From: an uncultured Lentimicrobiaceae bacterium
Lineage (GTDB): Bacteria > Bacteroidota > Bacteroidia > Bacteroidales > WCHB1-69
Direction of reading: 5' to 3'
Length of the DNA stretch: 64,000 bases
Assembly: GCA_964521105.1 (NCBI GenBank)
Contig: CAZFPO010000005.1
Location: 3,534 to 67,533 of the forward strand
Positions 39,919-49,078 of the stretch are shown here, piece after piece. A model generated the notes under the pieces. It saw nothing but the letters and a program-made list of their open reading frames with translations, searched no databases and was not told the origin of the DNA. Numbering within the stretch: the first letter of the stretch is position 1; every line of letters begins with the position of its first letter. Position numbers and translations under genes: made by a program.

Positions 39919-40695
39919 TTAATAAATCATCATGGAAGTCATTGACAATGAGCCTGCAATTATTTTGTCGTTAAAAAAAATAATTTTTTCTTCTTTATTT
40001 TTTAATGCTAAAATATAAAGTAGCGGTAAAAAATGCTCAGGAGTTGGTATTGAGTTTTTAAATGATAATCCAAGTTGAGAGTAATTAAAAAGCGATTCAT
40101 GATTATCCTGTATAATGAAATCTTTAATTTTATCACTTGCTTCCGTTGCCCAATCATAGGCATATTCTTCGTTATTTAATTTATTCCATGCTAACATTCT
40201 TAAATTATGAATGATGTTACCACTTCCAACAATTAAAACTCCCCTATTCCTTAAAAAAGCTAATTCTTTAGCTAATTGATAATGCTCGTAAGTTTTTTTA
40301 TTTAAATCTAAACTTAATTGAATAATAGGTACGTCTGCTTTAGGGTAAAAGTGTTTCAATACCGACCACGTGCCATGGTCTAACCCCCAATTATAATCAA
40401 GTTCGATTGTTTTTTTTACGATGTTTTTTATTTCTAGTGCTAAATCAGGATTTCCCTTAGCGGGATAAATAATTTCATATAATTCGGGAGGAAAACCTCC
40501 AAAGTCGTGTATAGTAGGTGGATTTTCCATTCCTGTAACCAAAGAACCATTGGTTTCCCAGTGAGCTGAAATGCATAAAATTGACTTAGGTTTAGGAGTT
40601 GTAAAAGAAATTTCTTTAAATTTTTGAACAAATTCATTTTCTTCGATAGCATTCATAGGACTACCGTGACCTATGAATAGAATTGGCATTTTCAT
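39919..40695 (-). CDS. ygiD: LigB-family class III extradiol dioxygenase (YgiD / 4,5-DOPA dioxygenase-like)
   Basis: 258 aa. MPILFIGHGSPMNAIE…, …SAHWET…, …DHGTWSVL… and …GSGNIIHNL… match the YgiD pattern of metal-binding His residues. Its start overlaps the upstream stop (ATGA). Confidence 0.8.
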   Translation of the reverse strand: MKMPILFIGHGSPMNAIEENEFVQKFKEISFTTPKPKSILCISAHWETNGSLVTGMENPPTIHDFGGFPPELYEIIYPAKGNPDLALEIKNIVKKTIELDYNWGLDHGTWSVLKHFYPKADVPIIQLSLDLNKKTYEHYQLAKELAFLRNRGVLIVGSGNIIHNLRMLAWNKLNNEEYAYDWATEASDKIKDFIIQDNHESLFNYSQLGLSFKNSIPTPEHFLPLLYILALKNKEEKIIFFNDKIIAGSLSMTSMMIY

Positions 40696-41879
40696 ATAAA
40701 TTCTATAGTTACTTCTTTCATAAATTTATTTTCTAAAATTTCAACAATTCGACGGACTACTGTTCGGCGAATTTCAAGTTCTTGTGGTAAATTTGGATCT
40801 TGATGAGCTGTATTTATCGAAGTTCCAACTAAAAAGTAGATGTTATCACTTTTTAATATTAGTTTAATCATTTCATCAGCAGGACCATGTCCTAGTTTTG
40901 TATCGGTAGAATATTCTCTAAGTTTTTCCGAAACTTTACTTAAAGTTAATATTCCTTCGGTAACAAGATTAATATTATCCATGTATGATATGGGAGGTAA
41001 ATCAGGGTCGGTCATAACAATTCCCGAACGATACATGTAATTTAAATTGGAAGCAATAATTTCGGCAGTTGTGCCACCACTTATTACTTTTTTCCCTTCA
41101 AACGATTGAACTTTTACAGCAAGTTGTAAATCTTTTTCCTTGTCGTATGGCGGTCCAGTACAAATTAAAAGTTTTCGAGGATGACGAAAATAAATAACGG
41201 CACAACTAGTGTCGTCTTGTGGGATATTGTTGTCATTACGAAGAGCAATATCAATTATTTTTCGTGCAGCTGCAAATGCTGATATAAATGCATCACGTTC
41301 GATTAAATTATATACATATTTTTCAACGCTATCCTGTCCCCAGCCAAAAGGATACTGACGAGTTCCCATACCTGATTGAGGCACCCCATCCGACCAGAAA
41401 AAAATCCGATCTTCTTTTTGAGCATCAAATCTACATAATCGAAGAATTTTACCTTTATGTTTTTCGCTTTCTAAAACAATATCTCTCCAACCTGGATCAA
41501 AAGGCTTTTTACCTCTCATAATCACACTTCGAGGATTATCGTATTCGATTATGCTTGTGGTGCCATCAAACTCAATATCAACAATAGTAAAAGTAGAATA
41601 ACTAACTTTTCGGAAGGAACAAACGGGTAAAGTGTCCATAATTATTTCGGCGGTTTGCCTAATATTACGATGGTCTTTAGTAAAGTTTAATGCCATTGAA
41701 GCAGTTAAAGTCGCTAACACATTTGCTTTTACGCCAGTTCCCATTCCATCCGAAAGAACAGCTATTATTCTTCGTTCAGATTTTATTCGCTCGGATAAAA
41801 ACACATCACCACAAATTGAATTTGGTACATGAATAGCTTGCTGACAATCCACTTCTATATAAAATATATCTTCAATCAT
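40692..41879 (-). CDS. PP2C/SpoIIE-family protein phosphatase with an unassigned roughly 150-aa C-terminal domain
   Basis: 395 aa. Motifs …CGDVF…, …AVLSDGMGTGVKA…, …FFWSDGV… and …DDTSCAVIYF… follow the SpoIIE/PP2C metal-binding Asp pattern. I do not recognise the fold of the C-terminal part (…VISGGTTAEIIAS…VTEGILTL…). Confidence 0.75.
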   Translation of the reverse strand: MIEDIFYIEVDCQQAIHVPNSICGDVFLSERIKSERRIIAVLSDGMGTGVKANVLATLTASMALNFTKDHRNIRQTAEIIMDTLPVCSFRKVSYSTFTIVDIEFDGTTSIIEYDNPRSVIMRGKKPFDPGWRDIVLESEKHKGKILRLCRFDAQKEDRIFFWSDGVPQSGMGTRQYPFGWGQDSVEKYVYNLIERDAFISAFAAARKIIDIALRNDNNIPQDDTSCAVIYFRHPRKLLICTGPPYDKEKDLQLAVKVQSFEGKKVISGGTTAEIIASNLNYMYRSGIVMTDPDLPPISYMDNINLVTEGILTLSKVSEKLREYSTDTKLGHGPADEMIKLILKSDNIYFLVGTSINTAHQDPNLPQELEIRRTVVRRIVEILENKFMKEVTIEFI

Positions 41880-41881
41880 AA

Positions 41882-43735
41882 TTAATTATTCTCATCATTT
41901 TGGTATGATTTAATGATTGAATGCAAAATTTTTTCAGTTTTTGAAGAGCTTTCGCCTAATAGATAGGCAATTTGTTGCACCGTTTCTAAATTTTCACGAA
42001 TTACTTCTTTTGCTCTTTCAATAACTTCATCTTTTTGAACTTCAGGATTTTCCATATCACGAATAACCCCCCCAACAATTTCATGTTTTTTAATTGAAAA
42101 AACCGAAATATTAAATATTTTACCTCTGTGTTCTTCGTCGCGAGAAATATTTTGCTCACCTGTAAAAATCACAGACGCAAACATTTTATGAAATGGGATT
42201 AGAGTTTTTATATCAGCACCTACTAAACCTGGTACCACGCTATTAACTTTAGTAGCTTCACTACCTAAAAGCTTAACAAAACTTTCGTTGGAATGTAGAA
42301 CTTTTAAATCTTTGTTTACAATTACAATTGCAAGTGGTATCTTTTGAAGCATTGCAGTTACGGTATTGGAAAGTTCTTTTGCTGTTTGCTCCTCTTCTCT
42401 AGCTCTTTGTTCTGATTTAATTAAAGCCTCTTTAGTATCCGAAAGTTTTTTATTGATTTGAGCAAGTTCGTCAATATAAGTATTCATTTTATCGTACGAA
42501 TAGGTTGGACACATTTCTAAATTTGCATAACCATTACAAATGGCGATAGCAAATTTTGTACATGACTGATAGCCACATGCTCCGCAAGACAATATATCTC
42601 TAGTTCTATCTCTCCCTAGTTCAGATAAAACATCTTTTAGATTATCCCCCGAAGGATTAGGAGCACGCTGATCGTCATCTCGATTATAGGTTCGTTTAAA
42701 ATTAATGATGTCTTCGAATTTTGAAATATCTTTAATCCATTGCGCTTTGTTTAAAGTTTTTAGTCTTTTTTCGACATAATTAATGACTAATGTTCTACGA
42801 AGAAACTTATCACCTTTTTTTGATGTTCCAGGACCCATGATGCAACCATCGCAATAAAAAAGATCAATATGTTGTTTTATTTGTATGTTTTTTTTGAATT
42901 CTTTAATTACTTGTAAAAAGTTATCACGTCCTTCGGTACAAATTATTTTACCAGTTAACAAATCCTCATTAATATCAACAGCTTGCAACATGCCACGACT
43001 AATAGGAAATAAGGAACCTTTATTTCCGAGTGGTGTATCGAATTCAGAATAGCTAACGGATGTTTCATTAATATTAAATTCGGCAAATAATTCACGTAGT
43101 TCAATATACGTAAGAACTGCATCAATTTCAAAATTTGTATCATTTACCCTTTTAATTTCTTTTTTTGCAGCAATACAAGGACTAATGTGAACAATTTTTA
43201 CATCTTGACCATATTTTTCGCGAACAACTTTAGCAGTAGCAAACATTGGTGAAATTATTGGGGCAATATTGTCAATAAGTTCGGGGTAAAATTTTTCGAT
43301 ATAATATATTACAGAAGGGCAATTAGCTGTAAAATAATATTTACCATTATAATTTTTAAATAATTTTTCGTATTGGTAAGCAACTAAGTCGACACCAAAA
43401 GCAATTTCGGTAACATAATCAAAACCAAGTGATTTAATCATGCTAACGAAGCTACGATAATCAGTGATATCTGAAAATTCGCCAGAAATACTAGGTGCTA
43501 CAATGGCTGCAACTTTTTGATTCGATTGAAGAAGTTCTTTAACTTCATCCTTAGAATCTTTATAATGGATTGCATTTTGAGAACAAACAGTAAAACAGCT
43601 TCCACACAAAACACATCTCGATTCGATAATTTCGGAGAAACCATCTTTTACCCTAATAGCTTTTGAAGGGCAAACTCTAACGCATGAATAGCAAAGTTTA
43701 CATTTCTCTTTATCAATGTTTATTAAATTTTTCAT
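41882..43735 (-). CDS. hydS: Sensory [FeFe]-hydrogenase-like protein (HydS type, group C): 2x[4Fe-4S] ferredoxin + H-domain + Cys motif + PAS
   Basis: N-terminal CKLCYSCVRVCP and CVLCGSCFTVCS. H-cluster motifs are P1 TANCPS (ligand Cys kept, relay Cys position is Asn), P2 ISPCIAAKKE and P3 FYCDGCIMGPG. These are followed by CGACGYQSC-x16-C (Cx2Cx4Cx16C), a coiled coil and a PAS-like domain (…LQKIPLAIVIVNKDLKVLHSNESFVKLLG…). Confidence 0.8.
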   Translation of the reverse strand: MKNLINIDKEKCKLCYSCVRVCPSKAIRVKDGFSEIIESRCVLCGSCFTVCSQNAIHYKDSKDEVKELLQSNQKVAAIVAPSISGEFSDITDYRSFVSMIKSLGFDYVTEIAFGVDLVAYQYEKLFKNYNGKYYFTANCPSVIYYIEKFYPELIDNIAPIISPMFATAKVVREKYGQDVKIVHISPCIAAKKEIKRVNDTNFEIDAVLTYIELRELFAEFNINETSVSYSEFDTPLGNKGSLFPISRGMLQAVDINEDLLTGKIICTEGRDNFLQVIKEFKKNIQIKQHIDLFYCDGCIMGPGTSKKGDKFLRRTLVINYVEKRLKTLNKAQWIKDISKFEDIINFKRTYNRDDDQRAPNPSGDNLKDVLSELGRDRTRDILSCGACGYQSCTKFAIAICNGYANLEMCPTYSYDKMNTYIDELAQINKKLSDTKEALIKSEQRAREEEQTAKELSNTVTAMLQKIPLAIVIVNKDLKVLHSNESFVKLLGSEATKVNSVVPGLVGADIKTLIPFHKMFASVIFTGEQNISRDEEHRGKIFNISVFSIKKHEIVGGVIRDMENPEVQKDEVIERAKEVIRENLETVQQIAYLLGESSSKTEKILHSIIKSYQNDENN

Positions 43736-43741
43736 GAAAGA

Positions 43742-43993
43742 TTATTTCAGTTGGAATATTTCGTCTAGTAGTTCTTTAATAGAGTCGGCTTTAATAGCTT
43801 CGTGCATTTTTTTGTCGATAAAAAGTATTGGTCCATTTCCGCAATTTCCCGAGCAGAGTTTACCTCTAAAGTCAACTACATCTTTTAATTTATTTTCTTT
43901 AATATAATTTTCAATAAACTTCAATGTATCTCTATTTCCTCTTGAAAAGCAAGAACTTCCCAAACAAATAATAATTTCATGCTTAGTTGCCAT
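43742..43993 (-). CDS. Thioredoxin-like [2Fe-2S] ferredoxin (HndB/NuoE-fold small subunit)
   Basis: 83 aa from the ATG at 43993 (MATKHEIIICLGSSCFSRGN…CSGNCGNGP…), with Cx4C…Cx3C spacing as in NuoE-type 2Fe-2S proteins. Confidence 0.75.
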   Translation of the reverse strand: MATKHEIIICLGSSCFSRGNRDTLKFIENYIKENKLKDVVDFRGKLCSGNCGNGPILFIDKKMHEAIKADSIKELLDEIFQLK

Positions 43994-44068
43994 AGCTAAA
44001 TAATTTTGCATAAATGTACAAAAAAAGGTTAGCATAGCTAACCTTTTTACAATTTTTATTACAAAAAA

Positions 44069-45859
44069 CTAGTAACGTTCTCTTTTTTTGTAGTGAGTAT
44101 GAAGTAATTCGTGCGATTTATGACCATTAGGTTTACCTAAAAATTCCTCATAAATAGCTGCAACTTCAGGATTTTCGTGCGATTTACGAATAGTCATATT
44201 AGCATCTTCATCGTAAATTGCTGCCATACGTTTTTTACGAATTTCTATGTTTGTAGGTACAGGTTGACCACCACCACCTAAACAACCACCAGGACAAGCC
44301 ATAATTTCAATAAAATGATAGTCAGCTTTTCCTTCTTTAACGCTTTGCATTAATGCTTTGGCATTTACTAATCCGTGAGCAACCGCACATTTCAACTCAA
44401 CACCTTCAAGGAATGACCATTCGGGAATTGTTCCTGAAATTACAACCGATGCTTCGCGAACACCTTCCATACCACGAACTGGAGTGATGTCGAGGTTTTT
44501 GAAAGGCACTTCTTTACCAGTTACAACTTCCCAAGCAGTACGAAGAGCAGCTTCCATAACACCGCCTGTAGCACCAAAAATTACAGCAGCACCAGTTGAT
44601 GCACCCATAATACTATCGTAGTTTTCTTCTTGCAACGAAGCGAAATCAACACCAGCTTGTTTAACCATGATGGCAAGTTCACGAGTTGTTAAAACAAAAT
44701 CAACATCTTTGTATCCACTATCACGCATCTCAGGTCTATCAGCTTCAAACTTTTTAGCGGTACAAGGCATAATTGAAACAGAAACGATGTTAGCAGGATC
44801 AATGTTGCGTTTTTGAGCGTAATAAGTTTTAACTAAAGCACCAAACATTTGTTGTGGAGATTTGCAAGTTGAAAGATTATCTAACATTTCGGGATACATG
44901 TGCTCGATAAATTTAATCCAGCCTGGTGAGCATGAAGTTGTCATAGGAAGTGCAATGGTATGGTCTTTTTCTTTTAAAGCTTTCTTTAAACGACCTAATA
45001 ATTCAAAACCTTCCTCCATAATAGTTAAATCGGCTGTAAAATCGGTGTCTAAAACTGAATCAAAGCCTAAACGTTTAAGTGCAGCTACCATTTTTCCGGT
45101 TACACGAGTTCCTACTTCGCCACCAAGGTCTTCACCCAGCGCAATACGAACAGCAGGTGCAGTTTGACAAACCACATGTTTGTTAGGATCAGCTAATACA
45201 TCCCAAACTTCTTCGATGTAATTTTTTTCAACCAATGCACCAGTTGGGCATCGGTTAATACATTGTCCACAGTTTGTACAAATTACTTCAAACATTGAAT
45301 GATCGAAGAATGTAGATACTCTCATGTGGTCACCCTTATGAGCACAACTAACTGCACTAACATATTGCAACTCTTCACAAACACGAACACAGCGTTGGCA
45401 ACGAACGCATTTACTATCGTCTTTTACAATTGAAGGAGAATAACGATCTATAGAATAGTGTTTTAAAGGAACTAAATCGATAAAAAAGTCATTACTGATT
45501 TTATATTCGGCTGCTAATTCTTGTAGTTCACATTTTCCGTTTTTATAACATTTGGTACAATCGGCGTTATGTTCCGATAACAATAATTCGATGATGTGTT
45601 TACGAGCTGTACGAACTTTATGACTATTGGTGAATATTTCCATACCGTCAGAAACGGGGGTAGCACAAGCTACTGGTAAGGTACGAGCACCAGTTTGTTC
45701 GACAACACAAACACGACAATTTCCTGCAACATTAATGTCGGAATGATGACATAATACAGGAATATTAATGTTAATTTGACGAGCTGCATCAAGGATTGAT
45801 TTACCTTTTTCAACGCTAACGTCAATATTATCTATGGTTAAATTTACTTTTTCTGCCAT
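44069..45859 (-). CDS. hydA: [FeFe]-hydrogenase catalytic subunit (HydA/HndD-like, M3-type with N-terminal 2Fe-2S and multiple 4Fe-4S domains)
   Basis: 596 aa. N-terminal 2Fe-2S (CHHSDINVAGNCRVC), a His-ligated cluster region and two CxxCxxCxxxCP motifs. H-cluster P2 is IMPCTAKKFEA and P3 is IEIMACPGGCLGGGGQP. P1 reads TSCSPGW. It ends with the small-subunit-like C-terminal motif. Confidence 0.9.
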   Translation of the reverse strand: MAEKVNLTIDNIDVSVEKGKSILDAARQININIPVLCHHSDINVAGNCRVCVVEQTGARTLPVACATPVSDGMEIFTNSHKVRTARKHIIELLLSEHNADCTKCYKNGKCELQELAAEYKISNDFFIDLVPLKHYSIDRYSPSIVKDDSKCVRCQRCVRVCEELQYVSAVSCAHKGDHMRVSTFFDHSMFEVICTNCGQCINRCPTGALVEKNYIEEVWDVLADPNKHVVCQTAPAVRIALGEDLGGEVGTRVTGKMVAALKRLGFDSVLDTDFTADLTIMEEGFELLGRLKKALKEKDHTIALPMTTSCSPGWIKFIEHMYPEMLDNLSTCKSPQQMFGALVKTYYAQKRNIDPANIVSVSIMPCTAKKFEADRPEMRDSGYKDVDFVLTTRELAIMVKQAGVDFASLQEENYDSIMGASTGAAVIFGATGGVMEAALRTAWEVVTGKEVPFKNLDITPVRGMEGVREASVVISGTIPEWSFLEGVELKCAVAHGLVNAKALMQSVKEGKADYHFIEIMACPGGCLGGGGQPVPTNIEIRKKRMAAIYDEDANMTIRKSHENPEVAAIYEEFLGKPNGHKSHELLHTHYKKRERY

Positions 45860-45896
45860 TTTTTTTTAATAATTTAATTTATGAATTAATCGACAA

Positions 45897-47075
45897 TTAG
45901 TATATCATTTCTTCTTTGAAATTGGTAACAATTGATGAGAAAGAATTTGCTACAGATTGTCCTAAACCACATTTTGCAGTAATTTTCATAGTTTCGGTTA
46001 ATTTGAGCAAATAATCGAGGTAATAAGAGTTTTTTTCGCCTCTTTTAACCGCTTCGATACCATGAATAAGTTGTTGAGTACCAACACGACATGGAGTACA
46101 TTGACCGCACGATTCTTCTTGGAAGAAATCTAAATAATTTCGTAGCACATTATACATTGAACGAGAGCTATTGAAAAGCATCATTGAACCACCTGTTGGA
46201 AGGTTGTCTCCTTCGAGGTCGCTTTGATATCCGATAATGGTTGAGTCGAATTTTTTACGAGGCACACAAAAACCAGAAGCACCACCAACTTGAACGGCTT
46301 TAGCATCACCATCACCAAATTCTTCAACAAATTCGCGAAGCGACATACCAAGTTCGAGTTCATAAATTCCGGCAATTGGAGTATCACCCGAAATTGAGAA
46401 TAGTTTTGAACCACGAGAAGATTTTGTACCTAATCGTTTATATTGCTCCGAACCAATTTTACAAACTATTGCTGCAGAAGCTAAGGTTTCAACGTTATTA
46501 ACAACGGTTGGTTTGCCAAGATAACCGGCGATAACTGGAAATGGTGGTTTATTACGAGGTTCTCCACGTTTACCTTCCATTGACTCTAAAAGGGCTGTTT
46601 CTTCACCACAAACATAAGCTCCGCTACCCATAAAAATATCAATTTCAAAGTCGAAATTGTTTTCCTTCATAATCGATTGAAAATCTTTAAGTTCTTTGCG
46701 AAGTTTTGGAACTAAAAATTTATATTCACCACGAAGATAAATATACCCTTTGTTAACTCCTACAACTTTAGCTGCGATTGCCATACCAGTAAGTACTTTA
46801 AAAGGTACTTTATCTAATATTTCGCGGTCTTTAAATGTACCGGGTTCGCCTTCATCGGCATTACAAACTATGAATTTTTCACTTGATTTTGCATCACGAG
46901 CAAATTTCCATTTTAACCCAGTTAAAAATCCAGCACCACCACGACCTTTAAGTCCGGAGTCAATCATTTCATTAATTACTTCATCGTCTGTTTTAGCAAA
47001 CGTTTTTGCTATAATTTCCCTGTAGTTATCCTCATTAAAAATTAAGTCAACTCGCTTAAGGGTTTTTTCTGCCAT
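45897..47075 (-). CDS. hydB: NuoF-like NADH-binding flavoprotein subunit of the hydrogenase (HydB/HndC core only)
   Basis: 392 aa. Contains GLKGRGGAGFLTGLKW (FMN), CNADEGEPGTFKDR, GAYVCGEETALLESMEG, and 4Fe-4S motifs ESCGQCTPCR…AKCGLGQ. There is no N-terminal 2Fe-2S domain and no C-terminal 2x[4Fe-4S] domain. Confidence 0.85.
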   Translation of the reverse strand: MAEKTLKRVDLIFNEDNYREIIAKTFAKTDDEVINEMIDSGLKGRGGAGFLTGLKWKFARDAKSSEKFIVCNADEGEPGTFKDREILDKVPFKVLTGMAIAAKVVGVNKGYIYLRGEYKFLVPKLRKELKDFQSIMKENNFDFEIDIFMGSGAYVCGEETALLESMEGKRGEPRNKPPFPVIAGYLGKPTVVNNVETLASAAIVCKIGSEQYKRLGTKSSRGSKLFSISGDTPIAGIYELELGMSLREFVEEFGDGDAKAVQVGGASGFCVPRKKFDSTIIGYQSDLEGDNLPTGGSMMLFNSSRSMYNVLRNYLDFFQEESCGQCTPCRVGTQQLIHGIEAVKRGEKNSYYLDYLLKLTETMKITAKCGLGQSVANSFSSIVTNFKEEMIY

Positions 47076-47092
47076 ATTAATCCCTCCTTATT

Positions 47093-47566
47093 TTAATATG
47101 TTCCTTTTTTACTATAACTATCTATAATTTCAATCACTTTCTCTTCGTTGAGTTCAGTGTGAATGTCATCGTTAATGAGCATTGCAGGTGCTTTATGGCA
47201 CCAGCCCAAACAATTAGTTTCCAATAAAGTAAACTTTTTGTCTTTTGTAGTTTCGCCTAACTTCATTTTTAATGTTTCCTCGATGGTTTTAATCATTTGA
47301 TTTTTACCCTTCATGGCACATGTAATTGATTTGCAAACACGAATTACAAATTCTCCTCGAGGATCAGTATCTAAGAAAGAATAAAATGTAGCAGTGCCGT
47401 AAACTTGTGCTGCCGACAAATCTAATTCTTGAGCCACAATTCGCAATGATTCTTCTGTTAGTGTTCGCTCTTGTTCGATTATACCTTGCAAAACTGGAAG
47501 CAAACTTTCACGTTTTTTGCCGTAAATGTTTACAAGTCGTTTGACTAGGCTTTCAACTTCTACCAT
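47093..47566 (-). CDS. hydC: NuoE-like [2Fe-2S] subunit of the hydrogenase (HydC/HndA)
   Basis: 157 aa. …LLPVLQGIIEQE…, CKSITCAMKG and CLGWCHKAP (Cx4C…Cx3C). Confidence 0.85.
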   Translation of the reverse strand: MVEVESLVKRLVNIYGKKRESLLPVLQGIIEQERTLTEESLRIVAQELDLSAAQVYGTATFYSFLDTDPRGEFVIRVCKSITCAMKGKNQMIKTIEETLKMKLGETTKDKKFTLLETNCLGWCHKAPAMLINDDIHTELNEEKVIEIIDSYSKKGTY

Positions 47567-47986: not shown

Positions 47987-49078
47987 TTAGCCTTTGTAAA
48001 AAGGAAGTTTAACCACAATAGCTTTTAATTTTTTATCTCTAATTGATATATAAATTTCTGTTCCAAGTTTGGAAAACTCGGGTTTAACATATCCCATACC
48101 TATTGCTTTATTAATTGATGGTCCTTGAGTGCCTGAAGTTACTTTGCCAATTTGATTTCCATCAGCATTAGTTATTATATAATCGTGTCGGGGAATACCT
48201 CTATCAATCATTTCAAAACCAACTAATTTACGACTAACTCCATCTTGTTTGTGTTTTAAGTTGTATTCTTTATCGATGAAATTGTTATTTTCGGAAAATT
48301 TAGTTATCCAACCTAATCCTGCTTCAATTGGAGATGTTGTATCGTCTATGTCATTTCCATATAAGCAAAAGCCCATTTCTAAGCGTAAAGTATCACGAGC
48401 TGCTAGTCCAATGGGTTTAATGTCAAATTCTTTACCTGCGTCAAAAACAGCATTCCAAATTTGTTCGGCATACTTGTTTGGAAAATAAATTTCGCAACCT
48501 CCCGAACCAGTATAACCAGTTGTTGAGAATAAAATATCTGGAATACCCGCAAAAGTTAGAGTTTTATGTGTATAGTATTCCATATCTTCAACCGTTGTTT
48601 CGGTTAATTTTTGCATTGCTTTTAAAGCCAACGGACCTTGAATAGCTAATTGAGAAATATCATCGGATACGTTTTTTATATCCGCACCAATTTTTTCGTT
48701 TTGTTTCTGCATCCAAGCCCAATCTTTATCGATATTTGCAGCATTGATTACTAAAAGATAACACGTATCGCTCATTTTATATACCAATAAATCGTCAACT
48801 ATACCTCCTTTACCATTCGGCATACAAGAGTATTGAACTTTTCCATCCCACAAGGTAGCTACATCGTTTGTAGTAATATATTGAACAAATTCAAACGCTT
48901 TTGGTCCACAAACATAAACTTCGCCCATGTGAGATACATCAAAAACACCTACTTTTTTACGAACATGTTCGTGTTCAATTATTAACCCTTCGTATTGTAA
49001 AGGCATGTAAAATCCGGCAAATTCAACCATTTTGCCTCCAACCGATTCGTGAATTTTGCTAAAAGCTGTATGTTTCAT
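47987..49078 (-). CDS. gcvT: Glycine cleavage system aminomethyltransferase (T protein)
   Basis: 363 aa. …GGKMVEFAGFYMPLQY…, …FDVSHMGE… and …ARDTLRLEMGFCLYGND… are canonical GcvT motifs. Confidence 0.95.
   Translation of the reverse strand: MKHTAFSKIHESVGGKMVEFAGFYMPLQYEGLIIEHEHVRKKVGVFDVSHMGEVYVCGPKAFEFVQYITTNDVATLWDGKVQYSCMPNGKGGIVDDLLVYKMSDTCYLLVINAANIDKDWAWMQKQNEKIGADIKNVSDDISQLAIQGPLALKAMQKLTETTVEDMEYYTHKTLTFAGIPDILFSTTGYTGSGGCEIYFPNKYAEQIWNAVFDAGKEFDIKPIGLAARDTLRLEMGFCLYGNDIDDTTSPIEAGLGWITKFSENNNFIDKEYNLKHKQDGVSRKLVGFEMIDRGIPRHDYIITNADGNQIGKVTSGTQGPSINKAIGMGYVKPEFSKLGTEIYISIRDKKLKAIVVKLPFYKG

Follow-up and report, generated by a model that had tools for sequence, protein, structure and literature searches.

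The stretch of DNA analysed here (the window) comprises 64,000 nucleotides (nt) of contig CAZFPO010000005.1 from an uncultured Lentimicrobiaceae bacterium (Bacteroidota; assembly GCA_964521105.1). The gene in question, hydS, lies on its minus strand together with genes for a Ser phosphatase, a small ferredoxin and an NADH-dependent [FeFe] hydrogenase. Its product is a HydS/HfsB-type, C3-like putative sensor, filed as such on its architecture, its alignment with a classical representative of the class (P0142) and its linkage to a PP2C phosphatase, and not on HydDB or phylogenetic placement; proteins of this kind are already known, and the class is biochemically under-explored. Proteins of the window were searched with Pfam, using the curated cut-offs, and with the NCBIfam models. 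The homolog search with HydS gave 1199 homologs, the top 120 of which were used to count residues at the proton-relay position (118 with a readable motif), and residues were mapped by aligning a profile of 119 full-length homologs to the chains of Clostridium pasteurianum CpI in the PDB. A diverse sample consisted of 150 representatives of 50%-identity clusters, and a species scan, in which each GTDB species was represented by a single genome, gave at least 592 genomes encoding a relative of HydS, the best 80 of which supplied the locus counts. AlphaFold2 (AF2) was used to model full-length HydS with its homolog alignment and, separately, amino acids (aa) 445-617, and Foldseek was run against the PDB. 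TmHydS, the sensor of T. maritima, was compared at the level of motifs, through peptides derived from published primers and through published residue identities; a DNA pattern rebuilt from the published TmHydS mutagenesis primers had no match in the genome contigs scanned, and the peptides had no clear match among the 150 representatives. The gene and its parts are as follows.

41882..43735, minus strand: hydS, sensor-type [FeFe] hydrogenase of the HfsB/HydS kind, group C3-like (open reading frame, Pfam, homologs, alignment with P0142)
43568..43723, minus strand: N-terminal ferredoxin-like domain, aa 5-56 (Fer4/Fer4_10 matches)
42818..43519, minus strand: hydrogenase domain (H-domain), aa 73-306 (PF02906 and structural match)
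43313..43330, minus strand: L1 motif TANCPS, aa 136-141 (N138 = CpI C299, the relay position; C139 = C300)
43157..43186, minus strand: L2 motif ISPCIAAKKE, aa 184-193 (S185 = M353, C187 = C355, A190 = K358, K191 = K359, E193 = E361)
42827..42859, minus strand: L3 motif FYCDGCIMGPG, aa 293-303 (F293 = M497, C295 = C499, C298 = C503, the bridging Cys)
42509..42586, minus strand: Cx2Cx4Cx16C site, C384, C387, C392 and C409 (PF04060 and conserved spacing)
42344..42508, minus strand: long, coiled-coil-like linker helix, aa 410-464 (AF2 model)
42050..42343, minus strand: PAS domain, aa 465-562 (AF2 topology, Foldseek, sub-threshold Pfam)
41900..42046, minus strand: C-terminal helix, aa 564-612, containing ENLETVQQIAYLLGESSSKTEKIL (conservation and AF2)

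The open reading frame of hydS begins with ATG and encodes 617 aa. Two CxxCxxCxxxCP motifs at the N-terminus (C12/15/18/22 and C41/44/47/51), in which all eight Cys are present, are predicted to bind two [4Fe-4S] clusters. Most members of the clade have Ser for the second Cys of the first motif (CxxSxxC, consensus KCNLSYxC; window 43690-43702, minus strand, HydS aa 12-15), whereas window HydS and its closest relatives retain CxxCxxC. Fe_hyd_lg_C (PF02906) matches aa 73-302 with an E value of 3e-45 (155 bits, cut-off 22.1), and the only solved structures matched by the full-length model are [FeFe] hydrogenases (E 1.8e-21 to 1e-17). HydS passed no NCBIfam model, and sequence and profile searches of the PDB found no HydS-like structure and nothing beyond group A and B enzymes. 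Behind the H-domain, CGACGYQSC-x16-C coincides with a PF04060 “FeS” match at aa 384-410 (31.8 bits, cut-off 23), and the Cx2Cx4Cx16C spacing is kept in all 113 homologs in which the motif was found; a further [4Fe-4S] cluster is predicted to be bound there, the same motif having been described for TmHydS and TamHydS (PMC8163306). Together, these motifs and Pfam matches go well past anything that chance would give. The stretch resembles the N-terminal “FeS” domain of RnfB and of corrinoid Fe-S protein, whose Pfam threshold it exceeds, and RnfB/RsxB models match it weakly at the NCBIfam level; unlike RnfB, the PF04060 module of HydS is internal, between the hydrogenase and PAS domains, and stands outside any Rnf complex.

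The linker that follows is modelled as one helix of 55 residues; this segment measures about 55 aa in the Bacteroidota HydS clade vs. about 17 aa in 86 representatives. No PAS domain was called in HydS by Pfam at the curated thresholds, although PAS_9, PAS, PAS_8 and PAS_7 all match one stretch of the isolated C-terminus below threshold (best PAS_9, 17.6 bits vs. 27, E 0.0047). The AF2 models (mean pLDDT, the predicted local distance difference test, 84.5 for the full-length protein and 82.9 for aa 445-617) arrange aa 469-560 as two strands, helices and three strands, which is the PAS order. With the aa 445-617 model, all 50 of the best Foldseek matches in the PDB were PAS domains, among them those of Aer2, HTR-like proteins, FixL, PYP, CitA, NifL and DosP (probability 1.00, E about 1e-6 to 4e-5, template-modelling score up to 0.76). 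A PAS fold for the C-terminus is thus supported by predicted structure, and an earlier note on this DNA, which had read an extra Cx2Cx4Cx16C motif as in TmHydS, a coiled-coil stretch and a PAS-like C-terminus, proves sound on these three points. Many of the invariant or near-invariant residues of the C-terminal half sit in the terminal helix (aa 564-612), whose motif NL..VQ.I[AG][FY]LLGE recurs in distant HydS proteins and is nearly identical in one with only 31% overall identity, and this helix is a candidate output or partner-binding surface. The classical representative P0142 (582 aa) aligns with window HydS over the full length (31% identity, E 2e-108), with a single gap of about 35 residues where window HydS has its longer linker helix. 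The closest of the diverse representatives share the architecture of window HydS.

In the profile alignment, the H-cluster ligands C300, C355, C499 and C503 of CpI correspond to C139, C187, C295 and C298, which are invariant or at least 90% conserved among the 119 homologs. The four Cys that the earlier note had located in TANCPS, ISPCIAAKKE and FYCDGCIMGPG are therefore all in place, with no ligand missing, and its statement that the relay Cys is replaced by Asn agrees with the alignment of N138 with CpI C299. The remainder of the proton pathway is altered as well: E279, E282 and S319 are replaced by Q121, K124 and A158, and the position of R286 is deleted, so the group A catalytic set (TSCCP with the relay Cys, plus E279/E282/S319/R286) is absent from HydS. 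Of the two Met residues that frame the diiron site, M353 is replaced by S185 and M497 by F293; the pocket residue F417 is retained as F243. Strictly conserved are the bridging C298 and, elsewhere in the pocket, P81, S82, S162-P163, F243, E193 and K191.

Two further deviations concern the pocket. CpI K358 (K228 in CrHydA1), a Lys that contacts the distal cyanide, aligns with Ala190; the counterpart of K359 is Lys191, which is invariant. The Lys is extremely well conserved, and K228 variants block assembly of the H-cluster in CrHydA1 (PMC9516953). In the clade, this position is A, S, N or T, with Lys in none of the 74 readable loci (of 80), and the next residue is always Lys; among the 150 representatives, Lys is present in 118 and missing from all ten clusters closest to HydS, and approximately 20% of the diverse group C representatives also lack it. 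The CxxC spacing of the last two ligands (C295-D-G-C298) falls one residue short of the canonical C499-x3-C503; it is shared by 69/71 scorable clade loci and 50/140 representatives and is absent from TmHydS. Judged by these comparisons, the loss of K358, the CxxC spacing and the longer linker seem to be more notable clade traits than Asn138. In the clade, the otherwise nearly universal Lys of K358 is gone, with a Lys shifted by one, the loop of the bridging Cys is one residue shorter and position 299 usually has a polar or basic residue (Asn, Lys or His). If the alignment reflects structure, it is tempting to speculate, although we consider it doubtful, that the Bacteroidota HydS clade has a distinctly rebuilt diiron pocket, which either would tune the H-cluster unlike that of any characterised [FeFe] hydrogenase or would have lost the diiron subcluster, leaving a pure Fe-S redox sensor on a hydrogenase scaffold.

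The earlier suggestion that Asn at the relay position is specific to the subgroup holds in part. Asn is the commonest residue in the clade, both in the closest homologs (N 56, K 42, T 6, C 4, V 3, M 3, A 2, Y 1 and D 1 among the 118 readable) and in the 80 species loci (N 32, K 15, A 11, H 8, V 5, I 4, T 2 and M 1), and it is rare in the diverse sample (A 72, T 18, P 18, S 12, N 10 and C 6 among the 150), where 6 of the 10 Asn cases fall in the 14 clusters closest to HydS. On the other hand, the position is hypervariable even in the clade (K, A, H, V, I, T, M and C), so that Asn is a clade-associated plurality and not a fixed feature. A published survey likewise found this position variable (Ala 43%, Cys 17%, Pro 10%, Ser 10%, “etc.”) and restoration of the Cys in TmHydS (A131C) lowered the activity instead of raising it (PMC10055695); the distribution in our 150 representatives is close to that survey. 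Because of this hypervariability and the loss of activity in A131C, the identity of the relay residue is probably of minor importance and no key functional determinant. The genes and the signal that accompany hydS are listed below.

40692..41879, minus strand: pp2c, 395-aa PP2C/SpoIIE-type Ser phosphatase, HfsC-like (PF07228, 25.5 bits)
43742..44035, minus strand: trx-like, small thioredoxin (Trx)-like [2Fe-2S] ferredoxin, Cx4C...Cx3C (PF01257, E 1e-10)
44022..44048, minus strand: hairpin AAAAAGGTTAGC-TATG-GCTAACCTTTTT with a 12-bp stem, followed by a T-run, between hydA and the Trx-like ferredoxin gene
44069..47566, minus strand: hydC-hydB-hydA, [FeFe] hydrogenase of the trimeric NADH-dependent type (Pfam, NF040763)

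On the minus strand, the genes run in the order hydC (157 aa, NuoE-like), hydB (392 aa, NuoF-like), hydA (596 aa), trx-like (at most 97 aa), hydS (617 aa), pp2c (395 aa) and dodA (258 aa), with intergenic gaps of 17, 37, 33, 6, 2 and -4 nt; the gaps of 6 and 2 nt tie the ferredoxin, sensor and phosphatase genes together. The phosphatase, encoded 2 nt downstream of hydS, contains DGMG, SDG and DDT motifs (by eye), and its profile matches RsbX (E 6e-4). It is 49% identical to the partner phosphatase of P0142 over 390 residues without gaps, so that the phosphatases are better conserved than the sensors (49% vs. 31% identity between the window and P0142). Its C-terminal half (aa about 235-395; window 40692-41189, minus strand) forms a highly conserved stretch of 160 residues with the motifs GPP, GGTTAEI, DPDLPP, TEGILTL and AHQDPNLP..ELEIRR, which is kept at 49% identity in the partner of the distant classical HydS; no family in Pfam, NCBIfam or the PDB matched this half, the best being a non-significant SIS-domain match (E 0.1). 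The Trx-like ferredoxin gene lies 6 nt upstream of hydS. Its open reading frame has 97 aa, and the true start is probably Met15, giving 83 aa as in relatives, because homolog alignments begin at about residue 15 and the hairpin overlaps the first ATG. The whole gene string is bounded by strong terminator-like hairpins at 47965-47938 and 39559-39530, and the hairpin after hydA is the only minus-strand terminator called between 47.9 kb and 39.5 kb; it may act as a terminator or attenuator that splits hydCBA from the sensor module. A scan for sigma-70 promoters gave 33 sites vs. 36 expected, sigma-70 being the wrong promoter model for Bacteroidota.

HydA reaches 888 bits (cut-off 765) on NF040763, “NADH-dependent [FeFe] hydrogenase, group A6”, and hydABC with the sensor arrangement is also found in L004 and in 14 species loci; HydABC is the presumed regulatory target of the sensor module. 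Across the best 80 loci, of which 79 carry Bacteroidota names (the exception is an “Omnitrophica WOR_2” metagenome-assembled genome), hydS is strictly linked with phosphatase, ferredoxin and hydrogenase operons: a PP2C gene lies directly downstream in 80/80, the Trx-like ferredoxin gene upstream in 72/80, and a HydA gene within 7 kb in 52/80. Named taxa with relatives include Marinifilum, Labilibaculum, Ancylomarina, Anaerophaga, Alkaliflexus, Carboxylicivirga, Saccharicrinis and Lentimicrobium, and in this clade, HydS proteins are 50-92% identical over their full length with the 16 metal-binding Cys conserved.

The clade also contains other arrangements. In Marinifilaceae (L003, L006-L010, L012, L015 and L083), a HydS of 572 aa (33% identity) and its PP2C stand in tandem with a Trx-HydS(617 aa)-PP2C set, with no adjacent hydrogenase operon, and in this context the relay position is Lys in 7/7 scored copies. 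At L018, L024, L026, L028 and about 30 other loci, a divergent hydC-hydB(long)-hydA operon lies upstream of the triad and ends in a second HydS-like paralog of about 670 aa, approximately 40% identical over aa 2-505. Among the diverse representatives, three HydS-like proteins (P0122, P0135 and P0147) have their H-cluster Cys replaced (e.g., ASNDPV, GPDIASK, FYGN--SL); P0122 and P0135 keep the Cx2Cx4Cx16C site, the PAS domain and the C-terminal helix, and by their sequences all three look like hydrogenase-derived sensors without an H-cluster.

Enzymes of group C (M2f) are proposed H2 sensors characterised by a pair of N-terminal clusters, an H-domain that lacks both relay Cys and proton pathway, a Cx2Cx4Cx16C motif and a PAS domain (PMC8163306, PMC10055695), and HydDB divides the group into histidine-kinase-linked (C1), chemotactic (C2) and phosphatase-linked (C3) types (PMC5037454). 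The window protein is called C3-like because its co-encoded PP2C/SpoIIE phosphatase corresponds to the HydDB arrangement “group C3, phosphatase-linked.” It resembles TmHydS in the two N-terminal [4Fe-4S] motifs, the four Cys ligands, the absence of the relay Cys and of the canonical proton pathway, the replacement of M353 by a small residue, the Cx2Cx4Cx16C motif and the PAS domain (PMC10055695, PMC8163306), and the likeness extends to individual motifs (ITTACPVVVN in TmHydS and FTANCPSVIYY in window HydS; VGPCIAKKS and ISPCIAAKKE, the TmHydS peptides being primer-derived). By contrast, TmHydS has Ala131, Gly177, Tyr223 and Ser267 where window HydS has Asn138, Ser185, Phe243 and Phe293, and where window HydS has Ala190 and CDGC, TmHydS retains a Lys aligned with K358 (C-I-A-K) and CxxxC spacing (ACYGSC); the linker helix of window HydS is also about 35 residues longer, as measured against classical-length representatives. 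TamHydS shares the N-terminal clusters, the pocket with Ser for M353, the absence of the relay Cys, the C-terminal Cx2Cx4Cx16C cluster and the position beside a multimeric group A hydrogenase (PMC8163306), whereas the PAS fold and the PP2C partner distinguish window HydS from it. TamHydS belongs to group D (M2e), a PAS-less relative of group C (PMC13104023, PMC8163306), and assignment of window HydS to that group is ruled out by its PAS fold and PP2C neighbour, since group D proteins have no PAS domain and have kinase-like ATPase and AraC neighbours.

The closest parallels in gene order are hfsB/hfsC, whose genetics indicate regulation (PMC5707799, PMC11837493). In HfsB/HfsC of Thermoanaerobacterium and HydS of Ruminococcus albus (C3), a PAS-bearing HydS likewise stands directly before a Ser phosphatase of about 394 aa and beside a fermentative hydrogenase, and P0142 has a context of this hfsB-hfsC-hfsD-like kind (HydS, a 394-aa SpoIIE protein, a small open reading frame and a 477-aa hydrogenase). 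The window locus differs from these in that the target there is a monomeric enzyme of the HydA2/HfsD type and here a trimeric NADH-dependent HydABC (A6), in that a small Trx-like [2Fe-2S] gene precedes hydS, and in that it belongs to the phylum Bacteroidota, not Bacillota. The R. albus cluster is said to include Ser/Thr kinase or Rex-like regulator genes; neither is adjacent to hydS in the window.

Taken together, it is likely that the hydS product reports H2 through its partner PP2C phosphatase to control the neighbouring HydABC. In the best-supported model, the published sensor scheme applied to this locus, H2 would reach an H-cluster held by C139, C187, C295 and C298, where the lost fast proton pathway (N138, Q121, K124, A158) would slow the turnover and allow reduced H-cluster states to persist. 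Electrons would equilibrate with both N-terminal [4Fe-4S] clusters and, probably, with the Trx-like [2Fe-2S] ferredoxin. The redox or conformational state of the H-domain would then travel across the C-terminal [4Fe-4S] domain, along the long helix and into the PAS domain together with the conserved C-terminal helix. These last two would modulate the 395-aa PP2C phosphatase; this enzyme in turn would dephosphorylate some phosphoprotein, such that the expression or activity of the NADH-dependent HydABC is adjusted.

Several observations weigh against this model. Group C enzymes are called “putative” sensors in the literature, H2 sensing having been directly demonstrated for none of them (PMC8924675), and H2 fails to reduce the C-terminal cluster of TamHydS, contrary to a simple redox relay (PMC13104023). 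With the Lys of K358 lost and the CxxC loop shortened, binding of [2Fe] in the clade does not appear assured from the alignment. Among the flanking genes in the window, no kinase, STAS-domain protein or transcription factor stands beside the module. The module is not beside a hydrogenase in 28/80 loci, and the hairpin after hydA means that the sensor triad may be a separate or attenuated transcription unit, which would fit the stand-alone triad of other genomes.

The first alternative is that HydS senses redox state and not H2; such a protein would carry only Fe-S clusters and no diiron subcluster, and would pass the state of ferredoxin or NADH through the Trx-like protein to PP2C. Ala190, at a position that is never Lys in the readable clade loci and whose variants block H-cluster assembly in CrHydA1, the CxxC ligand loop and the dedicated small ferredoxin co-encoded in 72/80 loci would all suit a sensor of this kind, and the proteins without H-cluster Cys, two of which (P0122 and P0135) retain the output parts, imply that the output module can work without an H-cluster. 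Nevertheless, we regard this alternative as unlikely, since the bridging C298 and other residues of the pocket (P81, S82, S162-P163, F243, E193 and K191) are strictly conserved, and since pockets altered to the same degree do not keep TmHydS and TamHydS from binding the diiron site and turning over H2 (PMC10055695, PMC8163306). Moreover, K358 is also missing from roughly one-fifth of the diverse group C representatives, the neighbouring Lys191 might substitute, and the tight genomic association is with hydrogenase operons.

Rather less probable is that HydS belongs to the neighbouring hydrogenase, as an accessory module or as a catalytic subunit of low activity in the manner of the “BfuT” subunit proposed in Hydrogenedentota, exchanging electrons with HydABC via the small ferredoxin, with the PAS domain and phosphatase providing only tuning. 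The occurrence of hydS in one gene string with hydCBA at short gaps is compatible with such a role, C3 genes inside A3 hydrogenase clusters of other phyla have been treated as an extra subunit (PMC11406978), and both TmHydS and TamHydS catalyse H2 turnover at low rates (PMC10055695, PMC8163306). However, the trx-hydS-pp2c triad that occurs in 28 of the loci without an adjacent hydrogenase, and the tandem duplicate in Marinifilaceae, are difficult to reconcile with a subunit, as are the hairpin and T-run that separate hydA from the triad and the loss of all canonical proton-pathway residues; furthermore, the strictly conserved partner is the phosphatase and no hydrogenase subunit. That HydS is an inactive relic, a decaying hydrogenase paralog engaged in neither sensing nor catalysis, is highly improbable: several residues held to be essential in model enzymes are indeed missing (C299, K358, M353 and M497), yet relatives persist in at least 592 GTDB species genomes with 50-92% full-length identity, 16 metal-binding Cys kept and phosphatase synteny in every one of the 80 loci.

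To our knowledge, no HydS-type sensor has been characterised in Bacteroidota, and none of the [FeFe] “sensor” hydrogenases has a solved structure in the PDB or a demonstrated signalling pathway. This locus adds to the HydS-PP2C module a large mesophilic branch in Bacteroidota whose cultivable hosts (Marinifilum, Labilibaculum, Anaerophaga and Alkaliflexus) could make the genetics of H2 sensing feasible. Positions that are difficult to study by mutagenesis (K358, the C499-C503 loop and C299) vary naturally in this branch, and the stronger conservation of the phosphatase and the C-terminal helix than of the hydrogenase domain points to the site at which the signal leaves the protein. HydS genes are now annotated only as [quoted passage not shown]; were they counted as H2-producing enzymes, fermentative H2 capacity would be overestimated. 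Window HydS itself is an ordinary, well-preserved member of its class, and the features most worthy of attention are the deviations in its pocket and the Ser at a ligand position of the neighbouring HydA, described below.

Of the remaining genes, dodA (39919-40695, minus strand; 4,5-DOPA-extradiol-dioxygenase-like, NF007914, 287 bits) runs into the end of pp2c with an overlap of 4 nt, and the two genes have the downstream terminator in common; in those relatives that were examined, dodA is not a conserved neighbour. Immediately upstream of hydC, separated by a strong terminator, lies a gene for the glycine-cleavage T-protein GcvT (47987-49078, minus strand, E 9e-89). One paper implicates the glycine-cleavage H-protein in making the dithiomethylamine ligand of the H-cluster (PMC11736057), and the adjacency of GcvT and hydC may be coincidental. 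No HydE, HydF or HydG maturase was found among the flanking genes in the window.

The HydB subunit (45897-47075, minus strand) is short, consisting of a flavin mononucleotide (FMN)/NADH domain and one [4Fe-4S] motif; the additional Fe-S domains that bifurcating HydB has at its N- and C-termini are missing. The non-bifurcating enzyme of Syntrophomonas wolfei has a 43-kDa subunit, near this HydB in size (PMC6288185, PMC8924675). The short HydB and the A6 call for HydA together suggest, by analogy, that HydABC is non-bifurcating and NADH-dependent like the S. wolfei enzyme.

Catalytic HydA (44069-45859, minus strand) has TSCSPGW (44918-44938) for the canonical TSCCPxW, so that Ser311 occupies the position of the [4Fe-4S] ligand C300; the relay Cys is still present. 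L004 and 14/14 syntenic species loci have exactly this motif, and the 120 closest HydA homologs (74-92% identity), several of them named “NADH-dependent [FeFe] hydrogenase, group A6”, comprise 119 with TSCSPGW and one with TSCSPAW; with the motif in 16/16 syntenic loci and 119/120 closest homologs, a sequencing error is ruled out. TSCSPGW has been mentioned once before, for Melainabacteria (PMC3787301), and the engineered variant C170S of CrHydA1 matures slowly, is still active and is biased to H2 evolution (PMC5855289). A different substitution, SSDCPAW with a natural Asp at the relay position C299, occurs in 11/41 HydA genes that are less than 45% identical to window HydA, mostly from the divergent operons.

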